In this document: piece by piece, positions 3,001 through 59,469 of the stretch | Position numbering within the stretch: the stretch's first letter is position 1 | How the letters are laid out: each line of letters starts with the position of its first letter | DNA from: Steroidobacteraceae bacterium | GTDB taxonomy: Bacteria > Pseudomonadota > Gammaproteobacteria > Steroidobacterales > Steroidobacteraceae | Direction: 5' to 3' | Assembly: GCA_035495635.1 (NCBI GenBank) | Contig: DATJFN010000055.1 | Coordinates: 539 to 64,538 of the forward strand | Length of the DNA: 64,000 nt | Notes under the pieces: model-generated | The model's input: the letters and a program-made list of their open reading frames with translations, nothing else | Told to the model about the DNA's origin: nothing | Database searches by the model: none | Translations under genes and position numbers: made by a program

Positions 3001-6000
3001 GGCTGCCGGAGGGCGCGCGCATGACGAGCGACGGCATCAGGTACTCGAACATCGAGCCGGACCAGGAGATCAGTGCGACGCCGCGGCCGAGCGGCGTGAC
3101 GGCGCGCCCGAGCCTGAACCAGTGCCTTGAAGGGAGATCGCCCTTGGCGATCGCGATGAAGCTCGCGAGCCGCGCTTCGGATGCAAGCAGGTCGTAGCAG
3201 CCGGAGTCGAGCCGGTCCTCGGAAGCCCGGTAGCCGATGGACAGCAGCTTGAGCTCGGGCTCGAATAGGAACCCGAATTCCATCGCGTCCGCCATGTCGC
3301 GCGCGCGGGTCGCCAGCTCCGCGAGGCGCCGCTGCAGCTCATGCGACGCTTCCTCACCCTGGGAGAAATCGCGAAAGTGGCTCTCCACCGCGCGCAGCGC
3401 CGCTTGGGCCCAGAACTGCATTTCTGCGCCCCCGTCGTCGCCGCGCTCGCCGGCGAGCGCGCGCGCGACGTCGACCAGCGTCGCGGCGAGCGGCCTGATC
3501 TGCAGGAGGCGCGCGGCCACAGGCACGGCTCCCGGGTCATCCGCGCGCAGTGCAGCAGCCAGCGCGGCGAGCGCGTCGTTCACCTGGCTCCGCGTGATCG
3601 TCTGGGTCCGGCGATCATCGGACAGCGCCAGCGCGGCTTCCCTGCAAAGGTCCAGGCTGTCTTCGATCCCGGCTAGCACCGTGCGGACCGCCACGGGACC
3701 GCGCATCCACTCGCCGCACGCGTTGGCGAGTGCGATCAGGTGTCCGGCCAGGTTGCCGCTGTCCACGGATGAAACGTACCGCGGCTCCAGCGGGCGCAGG
3801 TCGCCGGTGTCGTACCAATTGAAGAAATGGCCCCGGTACTGCTTCAGCCCCCGCATCGTCGTCAGCGTTGCTTCGAGCCGTTCGACCGTGTCGATGGTCC
3901 CGGCCCAGCCGAAATCGCGCGCACTCGCCGCGGAAAGCAGGTAGACGCCGACGTTGGTCGGCGAGGTCCGGGACGCGACGATCGCCTTCGGGTCCTCCTG
4001 GAAGTTGTCGGGCGGAAGCATGTGATGCGCCGCGGTCACGAACGTCTCGAAGTAGCGCCAGGTACGCCGTGCGACCAGGCGCAGGGCGCGCGCATCTTCG
4101 GGCGTCACGGTGACGCGGCCCGCGACCGGCGGCGACCGGCTGACCCACCGCGCGACGGCGGGCGATGCGAGCCAGGCCAGTACGAACGGCAATGCGACCG
4201 GCCACGCACCGTGGCCCGACCACCCGACTGCGACCGCCGCGGCCACCGAGATAGCGACTGCCGAAATCATGTGCCGGTAGCTGCCGAGAATGCCGGGAAG
4301 CCGCCGCGTCGTGAGCTGCGCGGCCGTCACCCAGTCGAGCAGGTGCCGGCGGCTGACGACCAGGCGATACAACGTGCGACCGATCGCATCGACCATCAGC
4401 CATGCCTGGTGCGGCAGGAAAACGCACGTCAACACAATCCGCGAGACGGCGAGTCTGAAATCCTCGCCGAGCGCGCGAAAATGGCTGCTCGTGCTGATGC
4501 GAGCCTGGCGCGGCACCGCGGCGGCGAGTACGGGCAAGATCATGGGCAACGCGATCGTCGACACGATGAAGGACGTCCAGATGAGCGCCCCATGCAGGTG
4601 TAGCGTCCAACCTGCGACGAGCGCGGCGGCGCCCATGGTCGGCGAGAGCGACCGCCGCAAGTTATCCAGCATCTTCCAGCGGCCGATCGACGGCACTTGC
4701 CGGCCGAGGATCCACGGCAACAATTGCCAGTCCCCGCGTACCCAGCGGTGCAGGCGAGCCGCAGCCGTGTCATAGCGCGACGAAAATTCCTCGACGACCT
4801 CGATGTCCGATACGAGGCCTGCGCGCGCAAAAGTGCCTTCGAAGAGGTCGTGACTCAGCAGGGTGCCTTCACGTACCCGGCCATGGAGCGAAGACTGGAA
4901 GACGTCGACGTCGTAAATACCCTTGCCCGTGAAGGAGCCTTCGCCGAACAGGTCCTGGTACACGTCGGACGCGGCCGCGGCGTAGGGATCGATGCCGCCG
5001 AGGCCGGAAAAGACGCGCTGGTAGAGCGATCCTTCGGAGCCGATCGGCAACGAGGGCGTCACTCGCGGCTGCAGGATCCCGTATCCCTCGACCACGCGGC
5101 GACTGACAGAATCGAACCGCGCCCGGTTGAGCGGGTGAGCCATCTTGCCGATCAGGCGGCGCGCGGCATCGCGCGGCAGGCGCGTATCGGCGTCGAGCGT
5201 GATGACGTAACGGACGCCGGCCGGCGGGACGGACGTCAACCCTTCGCCGGCAACGAAAGTCGTGTCGGTTGCACCGCGCAGAAGCCGATTCAACTCCTCG
5301 AGCTTGCCGCGCTTGCGCTCCCACCCGATCCAGCGCTGCTGGTCCTCGCTCCAGACGCGCCGACGATGGAACAGCAGGAACCGGTCGCCGGCGCCCGCCG
5401 GCCCGTATTTCCGGTTCAGGCGCGCAATGCCCGTGACCGCCGCTTCGAGGAGCTCCCGGTCACCTTCGACCTCCTGCGCAGGCGCATCCGTCCAATCGGA
5501 CAGCAGTGCGAAATGGATCTCGCGGTCCGGATCACCGAGGTGGAGGATTTCCAGGTTCTCGACCTGCTCCTCGATCGACTCGTGCGTGGTCAGCAAGGTC
5601 GGCACGACCACGATCGTGCGCAGCTGCGGAGGAATGCCGTCGCGCAGGGCGAGGCCCGGGAGTATCGTCGCGCCGTATCCGCGCGTCACGGCGCTGTTGA
5701 CGAGAGCAAGCGCTGCGTCGATCGCCGGAATCAGGCCGAGCGCGGCGAAGGCTCCGATCCAGGCACGGCCGATGCCAGTGCCCGCCAGCATGACGAGCGG
5801 CAGGGCGAGAATGATTGCGGCGATGACGAAGACCGCGCCGACGTAGCCGCCGAGGCCCATTGCGGCGCCCAGCCGCTCGCGCCAGGTATGGAGTGGCGCC
5901 CGAAATCCGATCCTCGCCTCGAACTTGCGGCGCCCGCCGGCGATCAGCCAATACCCGGGATCCCGCGTTCGTTGGCCAGGATCGTCATCCAGAGGCGCCT

Positions 6001-7078: not shown

Positions 7079-7103
7079 GATCCTTTGAGTATAAGGGCAT
7101 GCC

Positions 7104-7817
7104 ATGGCGACCGAGCTGCTGTTCCGCGACGACGCCTACATGAAAACAGCCACCGCGCGCGTCCTCGCCGTGCGCGACGGCAAGGTCGAGCTCGACCGCA
7201 CGATCTTCTATCCGCTCGGCGGCGGCCAGCCGGGCGACACGGGCTTCCTCGTCCGCGATAACGGCGAGCGCATCGCGATCGCCGACACGCGCAAGGGCGA
7301 CGCCCCCGGCGTCGTCGCGCATCACCTCGCCGCGGGCGCGGTGCTGCCGGAGGTTGGCGAGGCCATCAGCCTCGAGATCGACTGGGACCGACGCTACGCG
7401 CTCATGCGCCTGCACACGGCGCTGCACGTGATGTCCTGCGTGGTCGTCGCGCCGGTGACGGGCGGCAACATCGCGCCGGACAAGGCCCGGCTCGACTTCG
7501 ATATCGACATGGCGCTGCTCGACGCCGGCAAGATCGCCGCAGGCACGAACGAGCTCATCGACCGCGCCGTCGCGACCGAGAGCGTCTGGATCACGGACGA
7601 GGAGCTCGACGCGCGGCCGGAGCTCGTCAAGACGATGAGCGTGCAGCCGCCGCGCGGCCAGGGGCGCATCCGCCTGCTGCGGATTCCAGGGATCGACCTG
7701 CAGCCCTGCGGCGGCACCCACGTCGCCAACATCGCCGAGATCGGCGGCATCCAGGTCGTGCGCATCCGGAACGAGGGCAAGCGCAACAAGCGTGTGGAAA
7801 TCACGCTCACAGGCTAG
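7104..7817 (+). CDS. alaX: alanyl-tRNA editing protein, AlaX-M type (Thr/Ala-tRNA synthetase second additional domain)
   Basis: 237 aa ORF. Zinc motifs HTALHVM (HxxxH) and CGGTH (CxxxH) are typical of AlaRS/AlaX editing domains. AAGGG lies upstream of the ATG. Confidence 0.85.
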   Translation: MATELLFRDDAYMKTATARVLAVRDGKVELDRTIFYPLGGGQPGDTGFLVRDNGERIAIADTRKGDAPGVVAHHLAAGAVLPEVGEAISLEIDWDRRYALMRLHTALHVMSCVVVAPVTGGNIAPDKARLDFDIDMALLDAGKIAAGTNELIDRAVATESVWITDEELDARPELVKTMSVQPPRGQGRIRLLRIPGIDLQPCGGTHVANIAEIGGIQVVRIRNEGKRNKRVEITLTG

Positions 7818-36112: not shown

Positions 36113-38287
36113 TTACGGCCCGGGACTCGGCGCGGCGGCTGCGGCGCCGCCGAATCGATAGCGGAACGAGAGGCCGATGAGCTTGGCGTCGTGATCGTAA
36201 GGATCGGCGCCGCTCGCGAGGACCGACGGCACCGTGTCGGGCTCGACGCCTTCGAGCGCCCAGTCGTGGGCATCGAAATGCTCGTAACGCAGCGTGCCGA
36301 TGACGTCGAGCGCCGGCGTCGCCGCGAATTGCACCTCGAGGCTCGGCCCGTGCGAGCGCGTGCGCAGCGACGGAAACGCCTGCGGCGCGCCGCTCTGCAT
36401 CTCGACGTCGCCATCGCCGTCGATCAGGAAATATTCGAACCGCAAATTCCAGCGCTCCCCGAGACGATCGGCCCTGATGCCGGCAGAGGCCGTATCGAAC
36501 CGGTCGCGACTCCTCGCCTCCCAGTCCGGCGCGCCGAACGACTGGCTGCCGCTCAGGCGGCTCACGATCTCCTGCCGCCCGTATGAAGCATACGCAAAGA
36601 AGCGCTCGGACATCGCCCACGACAGGTCGGCCGTTTCGCCGGAATCCCGGCTGCGCGTGAGGCCGAGGCTGGAGTTGACGTAGTCGTCCAGGTAATAGAA
36701 GCCGCCCAGCGAGACCGTCACGTGACCGGGCAGCGCGAAGTCGATCCCGGCATCCCAGAAGTCGCGCTCGCGGTCGGCCAGGTTGAACTTGCGCATCAGC
36801 GGATTCTGCGGCGCGCTCGCCGCCGTGTCCGGGACATAAGGATCCGTGTCGCGGTTGGCGCCGCCGTAGCGAGCCTGGATAGAGAGCCAGGCGAGCGGGT
36901 TCGCGCGCAGCCGCGCCCACGCGCGGTCCTCCGTCGCCTGCGCGGCTTCCTGGAAGGTCCGGTCCCACTCCTCGTGGTCCCACTCCGCGGAGAGTTGCAG
37001 CGGCCGGCCGGCCTGCGGCCACAGCAGGCGCGCGAGGTCGTAGTCGCCGGCCAGCCAGAACTTCTGGCGCCGGAAACTGTAGGGCGTGTTCGTCTCGGCT
37101 CCGCCGGGGAAGGTGTCGCTCTCCACCGTGTCGTACTCGGCGCGCGGCGTGCCATTGTCACGGTCGTCGTAGCGGTACCCCAGCCTGCCGCGCAGCCCTT
37201 CGAGCCAGGAGACTTGCGCGCCCAGGTCGCCGCGGAGTTGCAGGTCGATGTGCGTGACGTCGACGCTGCCGTCCAGCGACTCGCGCGGCAGCGTGCCGGT
37301 CGCGATCAACGCGTTGGTTGTATAGGGCAGGAACGCATCATTCTGCGACGCCCGGCCCAGCGATCCGTTGAACGTCAGGCGCCACGTTGCACCGAGCGCA
37401 TAGCCGAGGCTGACCGCGAGCTGGTTGAACTGGTTATCCGGCTCCAGTGCCGTGCGCCCGCGGTCGGCCCCGGGTGCGATCGCGCTGAACGGGTTGTCCC
37501 AGGCGTAGTCCCACTGGCCCGAGAAGAAAGAGCCGAAGTAGCTGACGGCGACGCTCCCCCGCGACATCTCGTACCGCGCAGACCAGTCGACCTGATCGGT
37601 CACCGTGTCGACCGGGCTCGCGAGCTGGCTCGTGGTGGTGACGAAGTTGGCGCCGCGCAGCCGGTTGCCGTCGCGCGTCTCGTGCGTGAAATGCAGGTCG
37701 GTCTTCCAGCGCGAAGCGCCGTGGAGGCTGCCATCGAGCTGCCAGCGCTCGCGTGTCGTTGCGACGTCGTAGCCGCGCAACGAAGAGTCGAGTTCCGTCA
37801 TGAGCTGCGTGCTGCCGGCGCGTACCCAGCCCGCAGGGAGTCCCAGCGACGAGCCGCCGCCGAGGAATGGCGTGACGGTGGTGTCGTAGCGGTTGTACGG
37901 CGCCGCGATGTAGCCCGCTTCGACCTTCCAGGCGCCCGCGCGGCCCGCCGCGACTTCGACGCTACGATCGTCCAGGCCGAGATCCCGGGCAACTGCGGAC
38001 CAGTAAGCGCCATCCTCGCGGCGCTCGCCGGCAGAGCCGTCGAGCACGAGGTAGCCTCCGTCCTCGGTGATGCCGTCGAATTCGCCGAACCGGGCCGTGG
38101 CGCCGTCGGCGTAGAGGCTGCCCGCCTCCGCTTCAACCACCGGCTTGCCGTCCTCGAACGGGCAGAAATTGCATTCCCAACCGGAGGTGTCCACGGGCGC
38201 ACCGAGCGCGGGCCAGGCCGCGCACAGCGTCAGCGCCGGCAAGACAGGGGAGCGCACGACTCCGCCCATGGATGTGCGTGTCGTCAT
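36113..38287 (-). CDS. mtrB: MtrB/PioB-family decahaem-associated outer-membrane porin
   Basis: C-terminal 724 aa of track ORF 36113..39094. MTTRTSMGG...signal peptide, then the N-terminal CxxC motif (WECNFCPFE) typical of MtrB, then a long beta-barrel. The ATG overlaps the mtrA stop (ATGA). Confidence 0.85.
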   Translation of the reverse strand: MTTRTSMGGVVRSPVLPALTLCAAWPALGAPVDTSGWECNFCPFEDGKPVVEAEAGSLYADGATARFGEFDGITEDGGYLVLDGSAGERREDGAYWSAVARDLGLDDRSVEVAAGRAGAWKVEAGYIAAPYNRYDTTVTPFLGGGSSLGLPAGWVRAGSTQLMTELDSSLRGYDVATTRERWQLDGSLHGASRWKTDLHFTHETRDGNRLRGANFVTTTSQLASPVDTVTDQVDWSARYEMSRGSVAVSYFGSFFSGQWDYAWDNPFSAIAPGADRGRTALEPDNQFNQLAVSLGYALGATWRLTFNGSLGRASQNDAFLPYTTNALIATGTLPRESLDGSVDVTHIDLQLRGDLGAQVSWLEGLRGRLGYRYDDRDNGTPRAEYDTVESDTFPGGAETNTPYSFRRQKFWLAGDYDLARLLWPQAGRPLQLSAEWDHEEWDRTFQEAAQATEDRAWARLRANPLAWLSIQARYGGANRDTDPYVPDTAASAPQNPLMRKFNLADRERDFWDAGIDFALPGHVTVSLGGFYYLDDYVNSSLGLTRSRDSGETADLSWAMSERFFAYASYGRQEIVSRLSGSQSFGAPDWEARSRDRFDTASAGIRADRLGERWNLRFEYFLIDGDGDVEMQSGAPQAFPSLRTRSHGPSLEVQFAATPALDVIGTLRYEHFDAHDWALEGVEPDTVPSVLASGADPYDHDAKLIGLSFRYRFGGAAAAAPSPGP

Positions 38288-39237
38288 CGTGTGAGCCTGC
38301 TGCCGGACGGATGATTCGAGCCGTGGACCTGCGAATGGCAGTTGAGGCAGCTGCCCGCCACCAGGTAAGGGGACGGCGCGCCCGCGGCGGGAAGTCCCTC
38401 GGGCCCGTAGGCAAAGCTCGGATGGCCGACCTGCGAATGGCATTGCTGGCACAGCAAGGGCGCACGCTGGGTCAGCATCGCCGGCTGGCTCGAGCCGTGA
38501 GGCACGTGGCAGTTCGAGCAGTCCTCCGCGACCGGCGCGTGCTCCCAGAGGAACGGCCCGCGCTTTTCGCCATGACAGGAATAGCAGGTTTCGTTGAGCG
38601 AGGCCCGGCGCAGGCTGAAGTCGTTGGCCGATCCGTGCGGCGCGTGGCACCCGGTGCACGCCATCAAGTTGCCTTCCATCGGGTGGTGGAAGGGCTTTGA
38701 GTACTGGGTGTGCTCCCGCTGGTGGCAGTCGAAGCAGACCATCGCCTGCCGATCCACCGTTTGGACGTCGTCCCTGGCCGCATGGATGCGGTGGCAACCG
38801 GCGCAGGCGACTCCGTTCTGCTCGTGCACGCCCGCATGCCAGGCGTCGCCGACCGCGTCGGCATGGCAACCGAGGCAAGCTTCGTTCTGCTGCGCGGACG
38901 GCGCCTGCGACCCGGCGCCGAAGCGCAGCACGGCCGGCCGCGGCTGCCCGCTGCGCACGCGCCCGGCATGTGCGCCGCCGGGACCGTGGCAGGCTTCGCA
39001 TTGAAGCTGGCCGGCGCCGAACGGCGCATGCGGATCGGCGCGCGAGCCGTGCGGCGTCTTGAACAACGACAGCACGTCCGCGTCGTCGTGACACTTGATG
39101 CAGGTATCGGCGCCGTTCCGGCTGTACTCCGCCTCAGCCTGCGATTCCGGAGCCGGCGCGGCCGCGGCCGCCGCTTCCGCCAGCCACGCCGCCGCAAGGA
39201 GAGCGCCGGCGATCAGCGGCAAGCGTCGGGACCTCAC
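38284..39237 (-). CDS. mtrA: periplasmic decahaem c-type cytochrome, MtrA/DmsE/PioA family
   Basis: 317 aa with a signal peptide and exactly ten CxxCH motifs (CIKCH, CEACH, CLGCH, CAGCH, CFDCH, CTGCH, CYSCH, CSNCH, CQQCH, CLNCH). GTG start. Confidence 0.9.
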   Translation of the reverse strand: MRSRRLPLIAGALLAAAWLAEAAAAAAPAPESQAEAEYSRNGADTCIKCHDDADVLSLFKTPHGSRADPHAPFGAGQLQCEACHGPGGAHAGRVRSGQPRPAVLRFGAGSQAPSAQQNEACLGCHADAVGDAWHAGVHEQNGVACAGCHRIHAARDDVQTVDRQAMVCFDCHQREHTQYSKPFHHPMEGNLMACTGCHAPHGSANDFSLRRASLNETCYSCHGEKRGPFLWEHAPVAEDCSNCHVPHGSSQPAMLTQRAPLLCQQCHSQVGHPSFAYGPEGLPAAGAPSPYLVAGSCLNCHSQVHGSNHPSGSRLTR

Positions 39238-39247
39238 GCGGTCCCTG

Positions 39248-41614
39248 CTAGGGACCGACGTTGTGCATGAGCTTCACGTCGGCGGTGCGGCCGGGGCCAT
39301 GGCAGATCGTGCAGGACTCGACGCCCGACGAGACGATTGCGCCTTCCGCGGTCTTGCCGGCGTTGAAGTCGCCGCCGTTCTGCTCCATGTGCACGTGCGC
39401 CAGGTCGCTGCTGTGGCAGGCCGAGCAGGCCGCTGCGTTCGGGCTCACGGCGCGATCGTCCGCGAGCGTCGTGCGATCGCCGGCATCGAAGGTCGTTGCG
39501 TGAACCACCGAGCCGTCCACCGGATAGTAGGTATTCGGCTTGTGACAGTTCTCGCAGTTGTCCAGATGGCCGGGGAACCTGAGGTCAGTGAAATCGTTGA
39601 TCGAGTTGTTGAACCCGCAGACCTGGAATTGCGCCGAGTGAATCTGGTGGATCATGAACTTGAAGTCGATGGCCTGGTCATCCGGCCCGAGCCCGGGCGA
39701 CACGGGATCCGTCGGCGAATTGCTGCATGGCGGCAAGCGGCGCGCGATATCCGTGTTGTTCGGGTTGTGGCAGGTCGTGCAGAGCTCCGTGTTCTCCGTG
39801 CGATTGCCGCCGTGCAGCGAGAGCACGTTGTGGCAGGCGTCGCAGCGCGAGAGCTCGACTACCTGGCGGCGCGGCGTCGCGGCGGCGTCCGTGATCGGGA
39901 AGACCAGCCCAGTCGACGAGATCGGGATGTTCTCGAGCAAGCCGTCGCCGTTGGCGTCGACGCGCGCCCTGCCTTCGAGCAGCGCCTCGCCGGAGCCCGT
40001 CATGAAGAGCGGGATCGGGATCGTGGAGGTCGCGGAGAAGGTCAGGTCCGCATTCTTGACCACGGCGGGATCCAGGAAATTGATCCGCACCGGCAGCGCC
40101 GGCGTGCCGACGTCCGGCGCCGTCGCGGAACCGCTGCCGCGGTTGTTGAAATCGGCCGTGTTCCAGGCGATGTTCACGGTGAGCGAGGCGCCCGGCTGCC
40201 TGAACGGTCCGGCCGGATCCGTGGTGTCGTACGGCGCATCGCCGTTGGTCGGGTCCGTGACCTGGATGGTGACCGTCGGGTTCTGGCCCGGCGCTGTATT
40301 GGCCACGCTCACGACCGTGTACTTGAACTTCTGGGACGCGAGCTTCTCCGGTATCTCGTGCACCTTGATGGTGCGCAGGTCGCCGTTGTTGATGGTCGCG
40401 TCAGGCCCGTGGCAGGTCGCGCAGTCCGAGTCCTGCACGGCGAGGTTCGCGGCGCTGTGGCCCTGGCCGGTCTGGAAATTGATCAGCACCGGAGACGGTC
40501 CCTGCGGAACGCCGGCCACGATCTGCTGCGTGGTCGCGTCATGGCAGGCGCCGCAGGCCGCCGAGTTGACGGTGATCCGGAAGTTGCTCGCCTGCGGCGT
40601 GTCGGCGTCCGTCTCCTCGTGGCAAGTCGTGCAGTTGCGGTGGTCCTGCGGGAAGGCGACGTCGCTGAACTCGTGCAGCGTCCCGCCAAACCCGTAGATG
40701 CCGTAACTCAGCCCGAGGCCGATCGTGCCGGTCGTCTGTCCCGTGGGCAGCGTGGCCGGCTGCACGCTCGGCAGCGACTCGCCGCGGTGGATCTTGTGGA
40801 TCATCACCTTGAAATCGACCGTATTGCCGCTCTGCGCGTCGAACGTGGTGGGCGAGTGGCACATCACGCAGTAACGCGTATCGAATCGCGCGCCGCCGTG
40901 GAAGGACAGCTGGTCGTGACAAGCCTCGCAGGTGTCGTTGTCGACGATTTCGCGAGAGAAGATGCCTGTGGTCGCGCCCGTGGAGGGCTGGAAGGTATAA
41001 ACGGGGTTGATCGTCGGCGCGAGGCCGCGGATCTCGAAGCCGACTCGGTGCGTCAGCGTCGCGTCGTACGGAATGTCCGGGTCGTTCGTGATGTTCTTTG
41101 CGAACGTGTACTGATAGGTGCCGTCGCCGTTGTCCACGAACTGGCCGGTGGCGCCATTCTCGGTCGTGGCTTGGTTCACGGGCTGCGTGCCGGGACCCAC
41201 CGGCCCCGGGTTCTCGGTGCGGCGCGTGTAGGCGCGCCAGGAACTCGACTGGCCGCTTTCGCCGGGAGCCAACCGGGCAACCACGAAGCTGATTGCCGGC
41301 GCCGTCAGGCCGGTGAGCGGACGGCCGAGCTCGTCGGCGAGACCGAACTGCACGACCGGCTGCCCGCCGTCCGGCACCGTGACGCCGGTAATGACCGCGG
41401 TGATCTCTTTGGCATTCGCGACGTCGACCGTCGCGCCGCTCCCCGGCGGCCCGGGCGGACCCGGCGGTCCGGGCGGCCCCGGAGATCCGGCCGAACCTTG
41501 GTCCCCGGTGCAGGCCGCGAGAAGAAACGTCAGGCCGAGGATTGCGGCGCAGCCGAACTGTGTCCGGCGGCCGCTAGGTCTTTGAAAGGATGCCCCTGCC
41601 GAGGATGCGCTCAT
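39248..41614 (-). CDS. mtrC: outer-membrane decahaem lipoprotein cytochrome, OmcA/MtrC family
   Basis: 788 aa. Lipobox FLLAAC. Ten CxxCH motifs in two blocks of five, separated by non-haem (beta-barrel-like) segments as in MtrC. A (GPP)4 tether follows the lipid Cys. GGGGGA SD. Confidence 0.8.
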   Translation of the reverse strand: MSASSAGASFQRPSGRRTQFGCAAILGLTFLLAACTGDQGSAGSPGPPGPPGPPGPPGSGATVDVANAKEITAVITGVTVPDGGQPVVQFGLADELGRPLTGLTAPAISFVVARLAPGESGQSSSWRAYTRRTENPGPVGPGTQPVNQATTENGATGQFVDNGDGTYQYTFAKNITNDPDIPYDATLTHRVGFEIRGLAPTINPVYTFQPSTGATTGIFSREIVDNDTCEACHDQLSFHGGARFDTRYCVMCHSPTTFDAQSGNTVDFKVMIHKIHRGESLPSVQPATLPTGQTTGTIGLGLSYGIYGFGGTLHEFSDVAFPQDHRNCTTCHEETDADTPQASNFRITVNSAACGACHDATTQQIVAGVPQGPSPVLINFQTGQGHSAANLAVQDSDCATCHGPDATINNGDLRTIKVHEIPEKLASQKFKYTVVSVANTAPGQNPTVTIQVTDPTNGDAPYDTTDPAGPFRQPGASLTVNIAWNTADFNNRGSGSATAPDVGTPALPVRINFLDPAVVKNADLTFSATSTIPIPLFMTGSGEALLEGRARVDANGDGLLENIPISSTGLVFPITDAAATPRRQVVELSRCDACHNVLSLHGGNRTENTELCTTCHNPNNTDIARRLPPCSNSPTDPVSPGLGPDDQAIDFKFMIHQIHSAQFQVCGFNNSINDFTDLRFPGHLDNCENCHKPNTYYPVDGSVVHATTFDAGDRTTLADDRAVSPNAAACSACHSSDLAHVHMEQNGGDFNAGKTAEGAIVSSGVESCTICHGPGRTADVKLMHNVGP

Positions 41615-49616: not shown

Positions 49617-51899
49617 TTACACCGGTCCCGTCATCTGCGCCGCGCGCTCGAGGTTGCGCTCGAGCTGGCGACGCGCGGATGCGTACTGCGACGGCCACCA
49701 TTGCTCCGTGAAATGCTGCTCGGCCGCGGCGCGGAGCGTCCAGGACGGGTCCGCGAGGTGCGGCCTCGCGAGCGCGCAGAGGTCGGCGCGACCCGAGGCG
49801 ATGATCGAGTTCGCGTGGTCCGCCTCGAAGATGTTGCCGACGGCGATCGTCGGGACGCCGACGACGTTTCGCACGAGGTCGGAGAACGGCGTCTGCCACA
49901 TGCGTCCGTATACCGGCTTCTGCCAGGGCACGGTCTGGCCGCTCGACAGGTCGAGGATGTCGGCGCCCCCGGCTTTCATCGCGCGGGCGATCGTGATCAG
50001 CTCGTCCTCGCCAAGGCCGCCGGGCGCCCAGTCGCTCGACGACAGGCGCACCGAGAGCGGCTTGTCCGCGGGCCAGGCCGCGCGCACCGCCGCGAGCACT
50101 TCGAGTGGAAAGCGAATCCGCTTGCCGACGTCGCCGCCGTAGGCGTCCGTGCGCTGGTTCGTGAGCGGCGAGATGAAGCTCGCCAGCAGATAGCCGTGCG
50201 CCATGTGCAGCTCGAGCATGTCGAAGCCCGCCTGCTCGGCGAAGCGCGCGCCGCGGACGAAGTCGCCGAGCACGCGGTCCATGTCGTCGCGGCCCATCTC
50301 GCGCGGCGGCGAGCTGATTCCTTCGAAGTACGGCAGCGACGAGGGCGCCATCGTTTCCCAGTTGCCGCCCGGCAGCGGGTAGCTGTCCTCCTCCCAGCCG
50401 AGCTGCGTCGAGCCCTTGCGGCCGGAATGACCGAGCTGCATGCAGACCTTCACGCGGCTGTGGTCGTGCGCGAACGCGACGATCCGCCGCCAGGCATCCC
50501 GCTGCGCATGGTTCCAGATCCCGGTGCATCCCGGCGAGATGCGCGCGTCCGGCGAGGTGCAGGTCATCTCCGTGAAGAGCAGTCCCGCCCCGCCCGTTGC
50601 GCGCGCGCCGAGGTGCACGAGGTGCCAGTCGTTCGGCATTCCATCGACGGCCGAGTACTGCGCCATCGGCGACACGACGATGCGGTTCTCGACGCGAAGC
50701 CCCCGCAGCTCGAAGGGCAGGAACATCGGCGGGCGCGGCTTCGCGAGGCCGGCGCGCTTCGCGAGCTCCGTCTCGACGCGCTCGACGAACGCCGGGTCGC
50801 GGAGCTTGAGGTTCGCGTGGCCGATGCGCTGGCTGCCGGTCAGCAGGCTGTACGTGAACTGCCAGGGCTCGAGCTTCGTGTAACGCGCGACGCTCTCGAA
50901 CCAGCGCATGCGGTTGCGCGCCGCGCTCTGGAGCTTCAATGCCTCGGTCTCGCGCTCCTCCTCGTAGGCCGCCAGCGCAGCCGGGACGTCCGCCGCGCCT
51001 GCTGAGCGTGCCACGAGCGCGATCGCGTCCTCCATGGCGAGCTTGGTGCCGGAGCCGATCGAGAAGTGCGCCGTGTGCGCGGCATCCCCGATCAGCACGC
51101 GATTGCCGTGGTGCCAGCGCCGGCAGAGGACGCGCTGGAAATTGAGCCAGGCGGAGCCGCGCCGGTGCGCGGCGTTGCTCATGAGTCGGTGGCCGTCGAG
51201 GTACTTCGCGAACAGCTGCTCGCAGAACGCGATGGACTGCTCGTGGTTCGCCGCATCCAGCCCAAGCGCGCGCCAGGTCTCCTCGCGCGTCTCGACGATG
51301 ACGGTCGAGAGCGACTGGCTGAACTGGTAGGCATGGACCTGGAACCAGCCGTGCTCGGTCTCCTCGAACGCGAAGGTGAAGGCCGGGAACGGCTTCGTCG
51401 TGCCGAGCCAGATGTAGCGGCACTCACGCGTGTCGATGTCGGGCTCGAAGACGGCTTCGTGGCGCTTCCGCGTGCGACTGTTGACGCCGTCGGCGGCGAC
51501 CACGAGGTCGGCATCCGCGAAAATCGAGTCGTCCGCTATTTCCTGCTGGAAATGGTGGACCACCCCGAGCTCCGCGCCCCGCTCCTGCAGGATGCCGAGC
51601 AGGCGCTTGCGCTCGATGCCGCAGAAGCCATGGCCGCCGGTCGTCGTGGTCGTGCCGCGGTAGTGGACGTCGATGTCGTCCCAGTGGTGGAAGCTGCCCG
51701 TGATTGCCTCTTGCGAGGGTGCGTCGGCCGCACGGAAGTTTTCCATCGTGCGGTCGGAGAACACGACGCCCCAGCCGAAGGTGTCGTCGGGCCGGTTGCG
51801 CTCGTAGACCTCCACGCGCGCCTGCGGCAGGGCCTTGCGGAAGAGGATGGAGGCGTAGAGTCCCGCGGGCCCGCCCCCGAGGCAGACGATGCGCTTCAC
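49617..51899 (-). CDS. bifunctional FAD monooxygenase / Old-Yellow-Enzyme reductase (2-aminobenzoyl-CoA monooxygenase-reductase / salicylyl-CoA 5-hydroxylase type)
   Basis: 760 aa. The N-terminal half is [14 protein letters not shown]...[17 protein letters not shown] (aromatic-ring hydroxylase). The C-terminal half is [15 protein letters not shown]...HLG.RA.GGAGL..TEMT...[10 protein letters not shown] (OYE/NADH:flavin oxidoreductase). GTG start. Confidence 0.85.
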
Positions 51900-53542: not shown

Positions 53543-53644
53543 GCGCGATTCTACTAAAGGGGACGCGCCCCTTTACCGCGGGGGCGCCGGATCGCCGATG
53601 CTCATTGGAAGTAAAGGGGCGCGTCCCCTTTAGTAGAATCGCGC
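53543..53644. repeat. 102 bp palindromic element: two REP copies inside 32 nt perfect inverted repeats
   Basis: 53543..53574 (GCGCGATTCTACTAAAGGGGACGCGCCCCTTT) is the exact reverse complement of 53613..53644, with a 38 nt spacer. It occupies all but 2 nt of the 104 bp gap between the divergent start codons at 53541 and 53646. Confidence 0.95.
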
Positions 53645-53645
53645 G

Positions 53646-56453
53646 ATGCCTGCGTATCTCGAAACCGAACAAGAGCTGTCGCGGCTGGCGCGGCGGGCGG
53701 CGGGCATGCGCGGCGGCCCCCGCCTCCTGATCCTGCCCGGCATCATGGGCTCGAGCATCGGGCTCCTCCGCAAGAACGGCGGCGTCGACGTGACCTGGTT
53801 CGACCCGGTCGAGATCTGCCAGGGCCAGCTCGTGAAGCTCGCACTTCCCGCCGGCAACCGATACTGGGCGACGGGCGTGCTCAAGTTCGCGTACGAGCGG
53901 CTGCGCCTCGTGCTGCGCATCGCCGGTTTCGACGCCGTGTTCCATCCCTACGACTGGCGCCGCGACCTCCTGTGGAACGGGCGCGAGCTCGCCGACCGGC
54001 TGCTGCGCGAGAAGCGCCAGGACGTCGTGCTCGTCGGCCACAGCTTGGGCGGTCTCGTGGCGCGCGCCGCGCTCGCGCACAAGGGCGGCGAGCGCATCAG
54101 CCGCGTGATCCAGCTCGGCGCACCGAACAAGGGCGTCTTCGTCGCCGTGCAGGCGCTTCGCGGAACCTATCCGCTGGTCCGGCGCGTCGCGATGCTGGAC
54201 CTGAAGCACAGCGCCGACGACCTCGCGCGCAAGATGCTGACGACCTTCCCGGGCCTCTGCGAACTCCTGCCGGCGGCGCATGTCTGCAAGAACTTTGACC
54301 CTTTCGACCCGGATCAATGGCCCGAGGGCCCCAAGCCTTCGGCCGCCATCCTCGAGGGCGCGCGCACGGCGATCGACGGCCTGCCGCCGCCCGATGAGCG
54401 CTTCCGGTTGATCGCGGGCTTCGGCCAGGACACGGTGCTGGGCCTCCGACGCTCAGGCCGCCGGCTCGAGTTTGGCCGCGGGCCGGCCGGCGACGGCACC
54501 GTGCCACTCGCGCTCGCGCAGTGGCCCAACCTTCCGACCTGGTACGCCGAAGAGAGCCACGGCTCGCTCCCCGGAAACCCGGAAGTGGGCCGCGCCGTCG
54601 TCGACCTTGCGCGAGCGGATGCGACCACCGCCCTGCCGCGCCTGCTGCCGCGCCGCCGCGGCGTGCCGACATTGTGGCAGGAGGACCTCCGCACCGCGCC
54701 TGCGCCGAAGATCGCCTGGGGCGACCTCTCCGAGCGCGAGCAGCGCGAGTTCCTGCACGAGTTCGTCGGCGTCACGCTGCCGTCAACGGCCGCGGCGACT
54801 CCGAAGCGCGCGGCGACCGCGAAAGCGGTCGAGCTCGCCTTCATGGAGGGCAGCATCACGCAGAGCGGCGCGGCGGCGATCGTGCTCGGCGCGTTCGCCA
54901 ACGTGGAGCCGGCGGGCGCGGCCCAGGCGATCGACCGCATGCTGCATGGCGCGATCAGCGACCTCGCGCGGCGGCGCGCGATCAGCGCGGCGGCCGGCGA
55001 GGTGTTCGTGCTGCCCGTCGGGCGCCACGGCATCGTTCCCCGGCTCGTCGTCTTCGCCGGCCTCGGCAACTTCGGCCGCTACGGGCCTGACGTGCAGCGC
55101 CTCGCCGCGGCGAACGTCACGCGGACGCTCGCGCTCTCGGGCGTCGAGAACTTCTCGATGGTGCTCTGGGGAACCGCTTCGGGCACCGAGCCCGACGACG
55201 CGGCGCGAGCGCAACTCGAGGGCGTCCTGACCGCGCTCTCGGACCTGGATGCGGAGCAGCGCGTCAAGCGCATCACCATCGTGTCGCGCGACGCCGGAAG
55301 GCTCGCGGCGGCGCGACGGGTCGCGGAGGACCTCCTCCGCCTGCATCCGGCGGCGCCGCTGCTGCGCATCGCGCCGCAGCGAAAGCCGAAGGCGCAAAAA
55401 CCCGCCCGCATCGTCAAGCCGGCGGCGACGCCGCTTGCCTGGCTGTTCGTGCAGGAGTCGGCGGCGCAGCTGCGCGTCGCCCTCCTCGGCCCGGCGCCGA
55501 AGGCGACGGCCCTCGTCGCGAATCGCCGGCTCGACTTGCGCCTGCTCGAGCGCGAGCACTCGCGCCTCGTGCCGGGAATCTCGATCGGCGACCTCGAGGA
55601 GTTCGGCGAGCGGCTCTCGGGCCTGCTGCTGCCGCCCGAGATCGCCGAGGCCCTGCCGTCGGTGAAAGGATCCCCGCTCGTCGTCGTGCACGATACGGCG
55701 AGCGCACACTGGCCCTGGGAAGTGTTGTCGCTCAAGGGCTGGGCACCCGCCGCTTCGAAGGGCCTGTCGCGCCGCTATGCCGCCGAAGGCATGTCGGTCG
55801 CGAAGTGGCGCGAGCAGCGCCGCCGCGCGCGCGAGTTCAACGTCCTGCTCGTGATCAACCCGACCGGCGACCTGCCGGGCGCGGTGGAGGAAGGCGAGCG
55901 CGTCGCGGCGATGCTGACGCAGATCGAGGGCGCGGGCATCACCGCGATCCGCGGCGGCGACGCGACGCGCGCGCGGCTCCTCGCCGAATTCCGCTCCGGC
56001 GACTACGACGCGATCCACTTCGCCGGCCATGCCTGGTTCGACCCCGAGGCGCCCGCCTCGAGCGGCATCCTGTGCGCGGGCGGCCGCGTGCTCTCGGGCA
56101 GCGACCTGGCCGCGATGGACTCCGTGCCGGCACTCGTCTTCTTCAACGCCTGCGAATCCGGGCGGCTGCGCGCGACGGTCAACCCGCTGCGCCAGCTCGA
56201 CCGCAGCGTCGGCTTCGCCGAGGCCTTCCTGCGCGGCGGCGTCGCGAACTTCATCGGCACCTGGTGGCCTGTCTCCGACGCCGCGGCCTCGACCTTTGCG
56301 ACGACGCTTTATCGCGAGCTCGCCAAGGCCGAGTCGATCGGCAGCGCGCTGAACGCCGCGCGCACCGGCGTGCGCGCGCTGCCTTCCGCCGACTGGGCGA
56401 ACTACCTGCACTACGGCAGCTACGACTTCACGCTGAAGGCGCCGAAGGCCTGA
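53646..56453 (+). CDS. three-domain protein: LCAT/PGAP1-like alpha/beta-hydrolase lipase + M17-aminopeptidase-N-terminal-like domain + CHAT (caspase-like) peptidase
   Basis: 935 aa. N-terminal: PGIMGS...PYDWRRD...VLVGHSLGG (Ser133), GDGTVP, ESHGSL. Middle: AAIVLGAFANVEP...GEVFVLPVG...RLVVFAGLG (Peptidase_M17_N-like pattern). C-terminal: AIHFAGHAWF (His) and ALVFFNACESG (Cys836), the CHAT dyad. An alternative start is M21 at 53706. Confidence 0.8.
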   Translation: MPAYLETEQELSRLARRAAGMRGGPRLLILPGIMGSSIGLLRKNGGVDVTWFDPVEICQGQLVKLALPAGNRYWATGVLKFAYERLRLVLRIAGFDAVFHPYDWRRDLLWNGRELADRLLREKRQDVVLVGHSLGGLVARAALAHKGGERISRVIQLGAPNKGVFVAVQALRGTYPLVRRVAMLDLKHSADDLARKMLTTFPGLCELLPAAHVCKNFDPFDPDQWPEGPKPSAAILEGARTAIDGLPPPDERFRLIAGFGQDTVLGLRRSGRRLEFGRGPAGDGTVPLALAQWPNLPTWYAEESHGSLPGNPEVGRAVVDLARADATTALPRLLPRRRGVPTLWQEDLRTAPAPKIAWGDLSEREQREFLHEFVGVTLPSTAAATPKRAATAKAVELAFMEGSITQSGAAAIVLGAFANVEPAGAAQAIDRMLHGAISDLARRRAISAAAGEVFVLPVGRHGIVPRLVVFAGLGNFGRYGPDVQRLAAANVTRTLALSGVENFSMVLWGTASGTEPDDAARAQLEGVLTALSDLDAEQRVKRITIVSRDAGRLAAARRVAEDLLRLHPAAPLLRIAPQRKPKAQKPARIVKPAATPLAWLFVQESAAQLRVALLGPAPKATALVANRRLDLRLLEREHSRLVPGISIGDLEEFGERLSGLLLPPEIAEALPSVKGSPLVVVHDTASAHWPWEVLSLKGWAPAASKGLSRRYAAEGMSVAKWREQRRRAREFNVLLVINPTGDLPGAVEEGERVAAMLTQIEGAGITAIRGGDATRARLLAEFRSGDYDAIHFAGHAWFDPEAPASSGILCAGGRVLSGSDLAAMDSVPALVFFNACESGRLRATVNPLRQLDRSVGFAEAFLRGGVANFIGTWWPVSDAAASTFATTLYRELAKAESIGSALNAARTGVRALPSADWANYLHYGSYDFTLKAPKA

Positions 56454-56460
56454 GGGCGGC

Positions 56461-57267
56461 GTGGCACGCATCGCAAGCCTGCACGTCTACCCGGTCAAGT
56501 CCTGCCGCGGGATCGACGTCGACTCGTTCCTGCTGACGGACACGGGCCCCGCGTGGGACCGGCGCTGGATGATCGTCACGCCGGCGGGCCACTTCATCAC
56601 GCAACGCTCGCACCCGGCGATGGCGACGATCGCCGTGGCGATCCAGGGCGGCAGGCTCCGGCTCACCGCCTCCGGGCGCGCGCCGCTCGAGGTCACCGTG
56701 GACCACGGCGGGAAGTCGTGGCCGGTCGTCGTCTGGAAGAGTACCTGCCTCGGCATCGACGCGGGAGACGCGGCGGCCGCCTGGCTGTCGGACGTGCTCG
56801 GCGAGCCGCTCCGGCTCGTGCGACAGGATCCTGCGCAGCCGCGCCACGCCAATACGCAATACGCGCCCGAATCCACGCCGGTGTCGTTCGCGGACGCTTA
56901 CCCGATCCTCATGATCTCGCGCGCGTCGCTCGAGGAACTGAATCGCCGGCTGCCCGCGCCGATCCCGATGACTCGCTTCCGCCCGAACGTCGTGATCGAA
57001 GGCGTCGAGGCCCATGCCGAGGATGCGATGACGCGATTCCGCACTGGGTCCGTCGTCCTGCGCGGCATCAAGCATTGCGATCGCTGCCCGATTACGACCA
57101 CGGACCAGCTGACTGGCGCCCGCGACCCGCACCAGCAGCCGCTTCGCACGCTCGCGACCTACCGGCATGACTACGTACTGAAGGGCGTCGTCTTCGGCCA
57201 GAACTGCGTCGTCGAATCCGGATTCGGCGAGCGCCTCGCGGTCGGAGCGCCGCTCACGATCGGTTAG
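56461..57267 (+). CDS. MOSC domain protein (YcbX-like: MOSC N-terminal beta-barrel + MOSC)
   Basis: 268 aa. IASLHVYPVKSCRGI, DRRWMIV, and the conserved Cys in IKHCDRCPITT. The GTG start has a GAGGG SD and lies 8 nt after the CHAT gene stop. Confidence 0.85.
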   Translation: MARIASLHVYPVKSCRGIDVDSFLLTDTGPAWDRRWMIVTPAGHFITQRSHPAMATIAVAIQGGRLRLTASGRAPLEVTVDHGGKSWPVVVWKSTCLGIDAGDAAAAWLSDVLGEPLRLVRQDPAQPRHANTQYAPESTPVSFADAYPILMISRASLEELNRRLPAPIPMTRFRPNVVIEGVEAHAEDAMTRFRTGSVVLRGIKHCDRCPITTTDQLTGARDPHQQPLRTLATYRHDYVLKGVVFGQNCVVESGFGERLAVGAPLTIG

Positions 57268-57273
57268 CGGCGA

Positions 57274-57361
57274 GAAATAAAGGGGACGCGCCCCTTTACT
57301 TTTGCCGGTTCGGCCGCCCAGGCAAATACGAAAAAATAAAGGGGCGCGTCCCCTTTATTTC
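57274..57361. repeat. inverted pair of REP-like palindromes (copies 57279..57297 and 57338..57356)
   Basis: AGAAATAAAGGGGACGCGCCCCTTT ... AAAGGGGCGCGTCCCCTTTATTTCT (24 nt inverted repeats). The 40 nt spacer has its own TTTGCC/GGCAAA inverted repeat. It lies between convergent genes. Confidence 0.9.
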
Positions 57362-57370
57362 TTTATTTCC

Positions 57371-58900
57371 TTACCAGGTGTAGCGGACGCGGTAGGTGAC
57401 AGTCGCCTCGCCGTCGGCGGCCACCTTGACCGGGAACTCGATCGTGCGCGCGTCCTTCTTGACCGAAGGCTGCGACTGCTCGATCAGCGTCCATTGGCTC
57501 CAGCGGTAGAGGTTCTCGCGCACGACGACCTCGACCGGCTGTGCCTTGTGGTTGCGGACCTTGATCTCAAAGGCCTCTTCCATGACACGGCCCTTCGTAT
57601 TGACCGTGAAGTCGGTCTGCCGGCGCTCGCCGACGACGTCGAACGCCTTCCCGAGCCGCACGCGCACGTCCTCGTCCTTCGGCGTGTGCTTGATCGTGTC
57701 CTCGCCGATGAACTCGAGGCTGCCGTCCGCCTTGTCCTGCTGCGAAACGCGGATGCGGCCCGCCGGCAGAGGCATGCCCATGCCGGAGTCCTTGTCGTTG
57801 CGGAACGTGAGCCAGACGTCGACGTCCGTGTTCGAGCTCGGACCGAGTTCGCGTTCCGTCACCGGCACTCCGTAGAGACTGCCGAGATCGCCGCCGTAGT
57901 ACACGAGCTGCTTCTTCGCCGGCACCCGTGTCGCGGTGTCGAACAGCTCGATCTGCTTGGTCGAGTTGTTCGGGATCGTCGCCGGCCGGCCGAGCGTGTA
58001 GAGGTGGTATTCGAAGAACGACTTCTCCTGGAAGCCAGCTGGCTCGGCCGCCGCCGCCATGTCCTGCATCTCGTATGCCTTCGCGCGCAGTACCTGCGGC
58101 GGCGGCTGCGCACGATTCACGTCGCCCGCGATCAACTTGAGCTTGGCGTCCGAGAAACGCGCGCCCGACTGGTTGAGGAGGCTCACCCAGGCGCCGACAT
58201 CGACAAAGCCCGAGTTCGCGTCCGATCCCTCCGTGAAGATGAGGTTGTAGTCGGCCCACCAGGTGATCCCGCCGGTCTGGTAGGAAACGCGCGCCTTCTG
58301 CATGCCGCCGCGGCCCGAGGCCACGTCCCACTCGAGCGTCGGCCGCGTGATGAGGCCGCCCGGGAGCTCGCCGAAGCGGATGCTGGTCCATTCGCGGAGC
58401 GCCCGGACCTGGCCGTCGGCGCCGCGGATCACGAGCCCATCGTTCGAGGAGACGAGCGTGCCGTCGATGACCTTCTCGCCGTCGCCGTTTCGCTGCACTA
58501 CGCTCACGTCGCGGTCGACGTAGCGCGACAGCAGCTTGTCCTGGCTCACGAGGTCGAACTGGAAGTTCTGCTCCAGCACCTTCGTGCCGTCGGGGTCGGT
58601 CAGCGACAGGAACTGCACGGTGGTCGGGTCGATGAGGGCCGCGACGTCGCTGAACTGGATCGTGCCGCGCCCGCGGGGAATCTGGAGCTCGCGGTCGAGC
58701 CTGACGAGCGCGAAGCCCGGCAGCTGGTTCGCCATGGGCGACCCCATGCCCGGCAGCGGCCGGTACCACTCCGCGGGGATGCCGCCCGGCTGCGCGGAGC
58801 TGTACACCGTGAGCGATACGTCGGGCTCCGCGGCGAGGGCGTTGAGCGCGAACAGGACACCGGCTGCGACCATTCCGGAACGTGATGCGGAGCACGACAT
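57371..58900 (-). CDS. DUF4139 domain-containing secreted protein
   Basis: Trimmed to MSCSASRSGMVAAGVLFALNALAAEP (signal peptide; GGAGG SD 7 nt upstream). 509 aa. The ...WADYNL...L.N.SG...DA.L.LIAGDVNR... pattern is typical of DUF4139. Confidence 0.7.
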   Translation of the reverse strand: MSCSASRSGMVAAGVLFALNALAAEPDVSLTVYSSAQPGGIPAEWYRPLPGMGSPMANQLPGFALVRLDRELQIPRGRGTIQFSDVAALIDPTTVQFLSLTDPDGTKVLEQNFQFDLVSQDKLLSRYVDRDVSVVQRNGDGEKVIDGTLVSSNDGLVIRGADGQVRALREWTSIRFGELPGGLITRPTLEWDVASGRGGMQKARVSYQTGGITWWADYNLIFTEGSDANSGFVDVGAWVSLLNQSGARFSDAKLKLIAGDVNRAQPPPQVLRAKAYEMQDMAAAAEPAGFQEKSFFEYHLYTLGRPATIPNNSTKQIELFDTATRVPAKKQLVYYGGDLGSLYGVPVTERELGPSSNTDVDVWLTFRNDKDSGMGMPLPAGRIRVSQQDKADGSLEFIGEDTIKHTPKDEDVRVRLGKAFDVVGERRQTDFTVNTKGRVMEEAFEIKVRNHKAQPVEVVVRENLYRWSQWTLIEQSQPSVKKDARTIEFPVKVAADGEATVTYRVRYTW

Positions 58901-58962
58901 AACGAGCCCTCCTTGGGCGGCGAATGCATAGAATAAACGGCGGCGCTCCCGGAGTCGGGTCA

Positions 58963-59469
58963 ATGCCCACCGAAATATCGCCCTGGGTCGAGAAGCTGTC
59001 GCCGTACCGGCAGGCTATCGCTGCCGGCGCGGTGCTCGTGGTGCTCATCGGCGCGATCGCCTGGCTTGCCTATCGCTGGAACGTCGCGAATGACCGCCTG
59101 GCACTCCTGCAGCAGCAGGCGGACGCGGGCTTCCTGCAGGCGCCGTCGACGAGCCGCACCGTGCGCATCGACCTGCATGCACCCCGCGCGGTCTCGGTTG
59201 GCGGCGTCGGATTCCCCGAGCGCGTCGACCTTCTCGTCAATGCGCGCACCGACCGCTACGCGCGCTTTCGCATGAGCCTCCTGCGCGACGATGGCACGCT
59301 CATCGTCCACGCCGACGAGATGCTTCGCGACTCGAACAACGATCTTCGCCTCTCGTTCAACTCCTCGATCCTGCCGGCAGGCGCCTACCGCGTCCGCGTC
59401 GAAGGCTACCTGCGCGCGGGCGAGACTCAGTTCATGGCGGAAGCGCCGCTGACTTCCGCCGGTCGCTGA
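58963..59469 (+). CDS. hypothetical membrane-anchored protein
   Basis: Start at ATG 58963 is preferred (GGAG 8 nt upstream); the track start is 58924. One TM (AIAAGAVLVVLIGAIAWLAY). No recognised domain. Confidence 0.45.
   Translation: MPTEISPWVEKLSPYRQAIAAGAVLVVLIGAIAWLAYRWNVANDRLALLQQQADAGFLQAPSTSRTVRIDLHAPRAVSVGGVGFPERVDLLVNARTDRYARFRMSLLRDDGTLIVHADEMLRDSNNDLRLSFNSSILPAGAYRVRVEGYLRAGETQFMAEAPLTSAGR

Follow-up and report, generated by a model that had tools for sequence, protein, structure and literature searches.

CHAT and other caspase-like proteases have recently been recognised as switches of bacterial immunity in Craspase, SAVED-CHAT, gasdermin activation and type IV Thoeris, and each of these systems has, to our knowledge, a known input domain and a known output. 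This article describes a gene of a Steroidobacteraceae bacterium, located in a stretch of 64,000 nucleotides (the window; positions 539 to 64,538 of contig DATJFN010000055.1, assembly GCA_035495635.1), which encodes a protein of 935 residues composed of an LCAT-like lipase domain, a Peptidase_M17_N-type domain of macro fold and a CHAT protease domain. In this family a different input domain, the M17_N-type macro fold, is hard-wired to CHAT in hundreds of species of about ten phyla. With a probability of roughly 0.4, the protein is read as a cytoplasmic, single-chain regulated protease that carries an interchangeable death-type effector, in this case an LCAT-like phospholipase.

The closest structural relatives of the CHAT domain, Csx29, SAVED-CHAT and separase, are all tightly gated, activator-dependent proteases. 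SAVED-CHAT of type III CRISPR-Cas (8tl0), matched by the CHAT part both structurally and by profile, resembles the present protein as a single chain with a separate alpha/beta sensor placed before CHAT and a protease switched by a signal; however, its SAVED sensor binds cyclic oligoadenylate where an M17_N-type macro fold is found here, it carries no fused lipase, and the window contains neither CRISPR nor cyclase genes. The SAVED_CHAT model of PADLOC aligned with 60 residues of the CHAT part only (E=0.002), and no SAVED domain was matched. TPR-CHAT/Csx29 of the type III-E Craspase (8eex, 7y9x, 7zoq), a gated and highly specific clan-CD protease, is also among the best structural matches of CHAT, but it requires a TPR domain and Cas7-11, whereas the only TPR_14 match of the query lies below the cut-off (13-18 bits vs 23.5) and there are no cas genes in the window; the type III-E combination of TPR with an adjacent cas7-11, csx30 or csx31 gene is not present. 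The absence of a TPR or NACHT partner, claimed by an earlier reading made from the letters alone (the sequence-only reading), was borne out, and no CRISPR partner was found either. Borvo (BovA) is a single-gene, CHAT-containing anti-phage system and, apart from the short SAVED_CHAT alignment, the only PADLOC model hit by the protein (E=1.7e-11), but the match covers positions 512-667 of 711 of the BovA profile (the CHAT core), and nothing in that profile corresponds to the lipase or to M17_N. The best Foldseek match of the CHAT region was DdvA of Myxococcus xanthus (8rot, E=6e-10), a transmembrane anti-sigma factor with a CHAT domain (PMC11506125). Unlike DdvA, which is membrane-bound and paired with a sigma factor of the ECF (extracytoplasmic function) type, the query shows no transmembrane segment, and no sigma factor is encoded next to it. 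Any link to type IV Thoeris was rejected, as the Thoeris caspase is C14-like and has a different C-terminal sensor.

The other two domains also have described relatives. LCAT/LPLA2 and the type VI secretion system (T6SS) lipase Tle4 (5txf, 4r1d) share with the N-terminal domain the alpha/beta-hydrolase fold, the Ser-Asp-His triad, the GHSxGG elbow and YDWR, but they are secreted single-domain enzymes or toxins, whereas in the query the domain is part of a cytoplasmic chain that also carries a protease. In M17 leucyl aminopeptidases (LAP; PepA 1gyt, 3jru, 8pz0) the N-domain likewise precedes a peptidase domain, which is an M17 metallopeptidase and not a cysteine protease of the CHAT type. MARTX and large clostridial toxins, which are mechanistic analogues only, use a clan-CD protease, activated allosterically by inositol hexakisphosphate (InsP6) of the host, to cut interdomain linkers and free effectors that include an alpha/beta-hydrolase lipase; unlike the query, which lacks secretion features, they are secreted, and the kinship is limited to the clan. 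We rate the protein as belonging to a known kind, that of sensor-coupled CHAT proteases with effector modules; it falls outside Borvo, Craspase, SAVED-CHAT, the gasdermin systems and the Tle lipases. No close relative was found in the PDB, and no description of the M17_N-CHAT core, of CHAT with lipase, of CHAT with macro or of the three-domain architecture was found in the literature; databases give generic names such as 'CHAT domain-containing protein', 'carboxylesterase' and 'pimeloyl-ACP methyl ester carboxylesterase'. The architecture is uncharacterised, as had been supposed.

Domain composition of the protein

The open reading frame (ORF) starts with ATG and ends with TGA, and its GC content at third codon positions (GC3) of 0.92 is typical for genes of the window (GC 69%), where no second copy was found. 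The gene and its parts, all on the + strand, are as follows.

53646..56453, stop codon included, + strand: whole gene of the lipase / M17_N (macro-fold) / CHAT protein, 935 residues (ORF, Pfam, AlphaFold2)
53703..54650, + strand: LCAT/PGAP1-type alpha/beta hydrolase, residues ~20-335 (Pfam, Foldseek, residue conservation)
54651..54821, + strand: linker 1, residues 336-392, of which 375-390 are predicted to be disordered
54822..55250, + strand: Peptidase_M17_N-type macro-fold domain, residues 393-535 (Pfam, PDB profile match, Foldseek)
55251..55436, + strand: helical connector (residues 536-576) and variable linker 2 (residues 577-597) (AlphaFold2, column conservation)
55437..56450, + strand: CHAT clan-CD cysteine protease with its own N-terminal beta-sheet, residues 598-935 (Pfam, Foldseek, dyad)

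The three-domain fusion proposed by the sequence-only reading was confirmed by the ORF and by Pfam, with each domain above the Pfam gathering score, and every motif it named was found in place: PYDWR (residues 101-105, with YDWR at 102-105), GHSLGG (131-136), GDGTVP (282-287), ESHGS (303-307), HFAGHA (791-796) and FFNACESG (832-839). The codons of the catalytic residues are located at 54042-54044 (S133), 54492-54494 (D283), 54558-54560 (H305), 56028-56030 (H795) and 56151-56153 (C836). As also claimed, no signal peptide was detected in the 935 residues, nor a transmembrane segment (Kyte-Doolittle hydropathy, 19-residue mean), the maximum of 1.5 being located within a beta-strand of the M17_N domain, and the protein is cytoplasmic.

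A structural model obtained with AlphaFold2 (AF2) from only 25 close homologues was unusable, with a predicted local distance difference test (pLDDT) of 57.7, and was replaced by one built on 130 diverse homologues (alignment A3), which reached a pLDDT of 91.0 and a predicted template modelling (pTM) score of 0.65. In the latter model the disordered stretches are confined to residues 1-6 and 375-390 (pLDDT < 50 in linker 1), and each of the three domains was matched independently by Foldseek in the PDB; all three assignments hold up. Mean column conservation is about equal in the three domains (0.64-0.66) while the linkers are not conserved; at the C-terminal end of linker 1, a basic patch, RRRQHR, is conserved in distant homologues and may represent a candidate processing site.

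The N-terminal domain scores above the cut-offs of Pfam PGAP1 (30.3 bits vs 24.3) and LCAT (25.6 bits vs 21), both matches being partial and restricted to the nucleophile-elbow region (residues 100-172). Foldseek relates it to LCAT (5txf, target-normalised template modelling score, TM, of 0.49) and to the T6SS lipase Tle4 (4r1d), to which it is also linked by phmmer, and in a viral library to LCAT-family proteins (0.5-0.64). The intact Ser-Asp-His set that had been claimed is present: S133, D283 and H305, likewise H795 and C836 of CHAT, are invariant among 25 close relatives, and across 46 diverse clusters (50% identity) D283 and H305 are invariant in all and S133 is kept in 41.

The middle domain had been described as an N-terminal leucyl-aminopeptidase domain of macro-like fold, and both parts of that description hold. 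Pfam Peptidase_M17_N aligns with residues 413-531 (E=1.2e-10, 41.8 bits vs 23.4) over positions 1-119 of the 129 of the profile, and the family profile matched the LAP N-domains 1gyt, 3jru and 8pz0 in the PDB (E ~1e-3), the macro domain of AF1521 being matched marginally (E=0.18-0.96). In structure, the domain was found to resemble macro domains (TTHA0132, 2dx6; YmdB and others; target-normalised TM 0.78-0.85; AF1521, 0.69), LAP N-domains (1gyt, 3jru, 3h8f, 8pz0) and viral macro domains of the viral library. G424, R444, G451, G472/G474 and N490 are invariant and R443 is nearly so. By sequence it is assigned to the LAP N-domain branch and not to the ADP-ribose-binding Macro family; the macro-like fold is common to both, and ADP-ribose binding is not implied by it.

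The CHAT domain gave the strongest assignment in Pfam (PF12770, residues 652-925, E=6.7e-34, 118.1 bits vs 24), over positions 2-289 of the 289 of the profile. The His/Cys dyad had been reported as intact, and H795 and C836 are indeed invariant in 46/46 diverse clusters and in 130/130 sequences of A3; H791 is likewise invariant in the 46 clusters. The Foldseek matches (DdvA on top, then Csx29/Craspase 8eex, 7y9x and 7zoq, SAVED-CHAT 8tl0 and separase 5fc3) range from E 1e-6 to 1e-10, and the model places the domain in the caspase-hemoglobinase fold. The protein is thereby a bona fide member of three domain families, CHAT, Peptidase_M17_N and LCAT/PGAP1.

A constant M17_N-CHAT core with exchangeable N-termini

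The distribution of the family was explored with a HMMER scan of 1.84 billion cluster representatives, which returned 1,059 matches at E<1e-30. Among the best 150 matches (50%-identity clusters), more than 100 are full-length three-domain proteins with 30-51% identity. When GTDB was scanned with a single genome for each species, at least 572 loci were found to contain a gene for a relative of the query. The phylum spread was read from 80 loci kept from these, whose full-length copies come from Gammaproteobacteria, Nitrospira, Acidobacteriota, Planctomycetota, Verrucomicrobiota, Chloroflexota, Gemmatimonadota, Desulfobacterota, Spirochaetales and Phycisphaerae. The distribution is broad but patchy, with about ten phyla at ~40% identity. 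Many near-full-length relatives with 74-99% identity are labelled as metagenome-assembled genomes (MAGs) of Steroidobacteraceae, and a second group occurs at 57-59%.

The constant unit of the family is M17_N+CHAT, and the N-terminus is swappable. About 20 of the top 120 matches to the core profile consist of M17_N+CHAT only (554-775 residues), and two such short forms were found to be complete stand-alone genes (L090, L173). In other members the core is fused to TIR_2 (P0260), to a Peptidase_C14 caspase (P0238) or to unassigned N-domains (P0213, P0222, P0403), and P0156 combines the lipase and the M17_N-CHAT core with a C-terminal M64 peptidase. TIR, caspase and membrane-lipid alpha/beta hydrolase domains belong to the effector set of bacterial conflict systems (PMC8195603), and nothing else speaks as strongly for the idea that the effector is modular as the agreement of the swapped N-termini with this set. 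That idea stands in so far as the core recurs with TIR, C14 caspase or no N-terminal enzyme; it does not extend to a lipase that is active throughout, the catalytic Ser being lost in 5/46 clusters.

A number of family members deserve separate mention. The Steroidobacteraceae MAGs L047, L053, L057 and L058 carry a paralogue type with 43-45% identity and the same three domains, and therefore two divergent lineages of the family coexist in this group. The paralogue is preceded by a LysR regulator in L047 and L057, as are the copies of the proteobacterial loci L051, L052 and L059. In L089 (6793-15451) the homologue is split into a 413-residue alpha/beta hydrolase and a 620-residue M17_N-CHAT ORF with a 34-nt overlap, either a frameshift or a true split. 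In L087 (13232-16018) a 928-residue patatin-like protein is encoded directly downstream of a 39%-identical homologue, which places two lipase-type genes in tandem.

Proposed mechanism, genomic context and alternative functions

In the proposed mechanism, the core would be a switch in which the M17_N-type domain acts as a regulatory or oligomerisation module and CHAT as the catalytic output, the LCAT-like phospholipase/acyltransferase being an interchangeable effector joined to the switch by a partly disordered linker. Some trigger would activate the CHAT protease, which would then cut, whether in cis or in trans, probably within the basic/disordered linker before M17_N, and possibly also attack other proteins of the cell. 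Cleavage would free the lipase onto membrane phospholipids, leading to regulated self-damage or growth arrest of the conflict, programmed-cell-death or stress type. We infer the proteolytic gating, as well as where the chain would be cut, what would set the protease off and which role it would serve; the gating is proposed because of the likeness to gated CHAT proteases and autoprocessing clan-CD toxins, the disordered linker and the Arg-rich patch of distant members. A further-reaching version, in which the M17_N-type domain senses a small molecule, possibly a nucleotide or a ligand derived from ADP-ribose, and allosterically triggers CHAT, and in which the cut linker frees lipase, TIR or caspase in a widespread, previously unrecognised family of one-protein 'executioners', is considered unlikely; in that version the family would be a bacterial counterpart of the logic of autoprocessing toxins and caspase cascades, kept as a core gene by some lineages such as Steroidobacteraceae. 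Should the protease of the core prove to be gated by a ligand or by stress, the gene would represent a new, experimentally tractable one-gene module of regulated death, and would also give the LAP N-terminal fold a function outside aminopeptidases.

The genomic context was addressed by all-against-all clustering of the flanking ORFs at 40 divergent loci and by a census with Pfam and PADLOC that took in 25 loci of different phyla and 119 neighbouring genes. Neither revealed a partner gene conserved across phyla, and the gene is a stand-alone unit. The most frequent neighbour family in the census is that of histidine kinases, with a maximum of 5, and a recurrent upstream ORF of ~300 residues, tried as a partner, turned out to be only the LysR regulator of one paralogue group. 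Defence-type neighbours in the census are sporadic (DpdJ, BrxHI, SngC, TPR-S/MAP3K_TRAF_bd); in L089 a SIR2_2/TIR_2 protein and a 1,368-residue nSTAND1 NTPase directly follow the split homologue. No gasdermin was found among the neighbours of the gene itself, which are AMP-ligase and MOSC, or among the 25 commonest Pfam families of the census. The family is not consistently located in defence islands, and the window of the query is ordinary conserved chromosome.

Several observations weigh against the proposed reading. Most of the phylum-diverse copies are surrounded by housekeeping genes, the 64-kb window holds no defence or mobile-element genes, IMG/VR contains no relatives on viral contigs (a phage origin was rejected on the same ground), and the likeness to BovA is confined to its CHAT portion and does not extend over the full length. 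Across Steroidobacteraceae the gene keeps one syntenic position, with an acyl-CoA-metabolism cluster on one side and a DUF4139 gene with an FtsX-ABC transporter on the other, hemE and pyrF being near. Its presence was assessed in metagenome contigs anchored on the DUF4139 neighbour: at >=70% identity the gene and MOSC are found in 16/16 loci with enough sequence, and within the clade its identity (74-93%) is in the range of the flanking genes. At 64-70% identity the gene occurs without MOSC in 2/2 loci, and below 64% only 2/14 carry anything, namely a 43% paralogue, located farther off. The gene behaves like a core gene in Steroidobacteraceae, where it is stably inherited, and is patchy at a larger scale. 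The lack of a Pfam Macro match for the middle domain (none at E<=1), notwithstanding its fold, places it outside the canonical Macro family and makes ligand sensing a conjecture. Finally, the lipase nucleophile is replaced by Gly (HGMGG) in 5/46 clusters (P0132, P0138, P0146, P0201, P0232) that retain both the CHAT dyad, invariant throughout, and the lipase Asp/His, which points to a non-catalytic role of the hydrolase domain in some lineages; with the Ser lost in 11% of the clusters, lipolysis cannot be the universal output, and the protease, not the lipase, is the indispensable activity.

These data are also compatible with a housekeeping function, which is possible though doubtful: a cytoplasmic lipid-remodelling acyltransferase or phospholipase that would use its own CHAT protease and M17_N-type oligomerisation domain to control its stability, assembly or activity, the latter domain acting as the N-domain does in hexameric leucyl aminopeptidases, and whose gene would be inherited vertically as a part of the normal lipid or envelope metabolism of bacteria from soils and sediments. 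The conserved synteny, the presence in every anchored locus of the clade, the conservation equal to that of flanking housekeeping genes and shared equally by the three domains, and the absence of IMG/VR copies and of conserved defence partners all agree with it, as do the neighbours themselves (acyl-CoA dehydrogenase, enoyl-CoA hydratase, SDR, acyl-CoA ligase and MOSC; SDR, short-chain dehydrogenase/reductase). The clade synteny and the neighbour-like conservation come near to a widespread housekeeping protein in core-genome context, the outcome that the sequence-only reading had named as fatal to its proposal. However, a TIR or caspase domain swapped onto the same core fits lipid metabolism poorly, the metabolic neighbours are not conserved beyond the clade, the distribution across phyla is patchy with the slot of distant relatives mostly empty of the gene, and the lipase Ser is lost in clusters where the protease dyad is kept. 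If it were a housekeeping protein, it would be a rare case of a caspase-like protease built into lipid metabolism.

The loss of the nucleophile, with the Asp/His and the fold kept, the existence of M17_N-CHAT proteins without an N-terminal enzyme and a CHAT dyad invariant everywhere would also suit a protein in which CHAT is the sole effector, as in Borvo and SAVED-CHAT, and the hydrolase domain acts in sensing, in binding to membranes or lipids, or in autoinhibition. This is judged unlikely, since the full Ser-Asp-His triad and YDWR in 41/46 clusters and in the whole clade of the query argue for catalysis, and the TIR and caspase N-domains are themselves effector-type enzymes. An exported lipase toxin, either Tle4-like and delivered by T6SS or similar to MARTX/TcdB and autoprocessed by its clan-CD protease after delivery, is suggested by the resemblance of the N-domain to Tle4 in both Foldseek and phmmer and by the pairing of such a protease with a lipase in MARTX, but is very improbable: the protein lacks export and membrane-spanning signals, T6SS, PAAR/VgrG, RTX and immunity genes are absent from the window and the surveyed loci, and no conserved small adjacent gene, as a possible immunity protein, occurs among the flanking ORFs of the 40 divergent loci.

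Neighbouring genes and repeats of the window

The features that adjoin the gene are listed below.

56461..57267, + strand: MOSC_N+MOSC gene, starting 7 nt after the stop codon of the CHAT gene
53543..53644, no strand: 102-bp palindrome of two inverted REP-like hairpin units, filling the divergent intergenic region
57273..57362, no strand: second inverted pair of this REP-like hairpin, terminator-like and located after MOSC
8562, 16834/16891, 23194, 27338/27404, 29168, 44102, 53556/53613, 57279/57338: hairpin copies in the window

Upstream and in divergent orientation are genes for an acyl-CoA ligase, an FAD/Old Yellow Enzyme (OYE) oxidoreductase, an SDR, an enoyl-CoA hydratase, an acyl-CoA dehydrogenase and RidA; downstream, MOSC is followed by the convergent DUF4139 gene and by an FtsX/ABC transporter. 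The MOSC gene is probably co-transcribed with the CHAT gene. Their pairing, pointed out by the sequence-only reading, stands as regards the adjacency and the closest clade, but it is not family-wide: MOSC is missing in relatives with <=59% identity, except L041, and was rejected as a functional partner of the whole family, being specific to the Steroidobacteraceae clade. An insertion of ~760 nt separates the gene from MOSC in L016, L018, L021, L024, L031, L067, L112, L113, L116 and L123; the subclade with this insertion has 74-77% identity, L067 being an incomplete copy with 80%. The most stably linked neighbour is the DUF4139 protein (57371-58963, - strand), which among the relatives of 53-59% identity that have lost MOSC is kept in L003, L037, L039, L042, L044 and L045 and absent in L004, L005 and L038.

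The palindrome upstream of the gene is real, as had been noticed: its 34-nt arms (53543-53576 and 53611-53644) are 100% complementary, and both flanking genes begin 1-2 nt from these identical arms. It is not specific to the gene, as the hairpin unit, AAAGGGG-ACGCG-CCCCTTT, occurs in 12 copies in the window (<=2 mismatches), all intergenic and including four inverted pairs, and is missing from most orthologous loci, only L033 and L112 having it. The hairpin is a species-level REP-like element and not a feature of the CHAT gene, and a regulatory or mobile role specific to the gene was rejected.

The rest of the window encodes KatG, a polyphosphate kinase, GGT, a TonB receptor and an MtrB/MtrC module. 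In this module, an MtrB/PioB-type outer-membrane porin (36113-39094, - strand) adjoins an MtrC/OmcA-like multihaem cytochrome (39248-41614, - strand), a pair of the extracellular electron-transfer type. With its glucoamylase and GH94 supersandwich domains, a giant ORF of >2,368 residues that runs off the window (1-7105, - strand) resembles a cyclic beta-1,2-glucan synthase. Inside the acyl-CoA ligase/dehydrogenase/hydratase cluster, a 760-residue protein (49617-51899, - strand) fuses a FAD_binding_3 monooxygenase-type domain with an Old Yellow Enzyme domain (Oxidored_FMN), and the versions of this cluster found in relatives include a MarR regulator.

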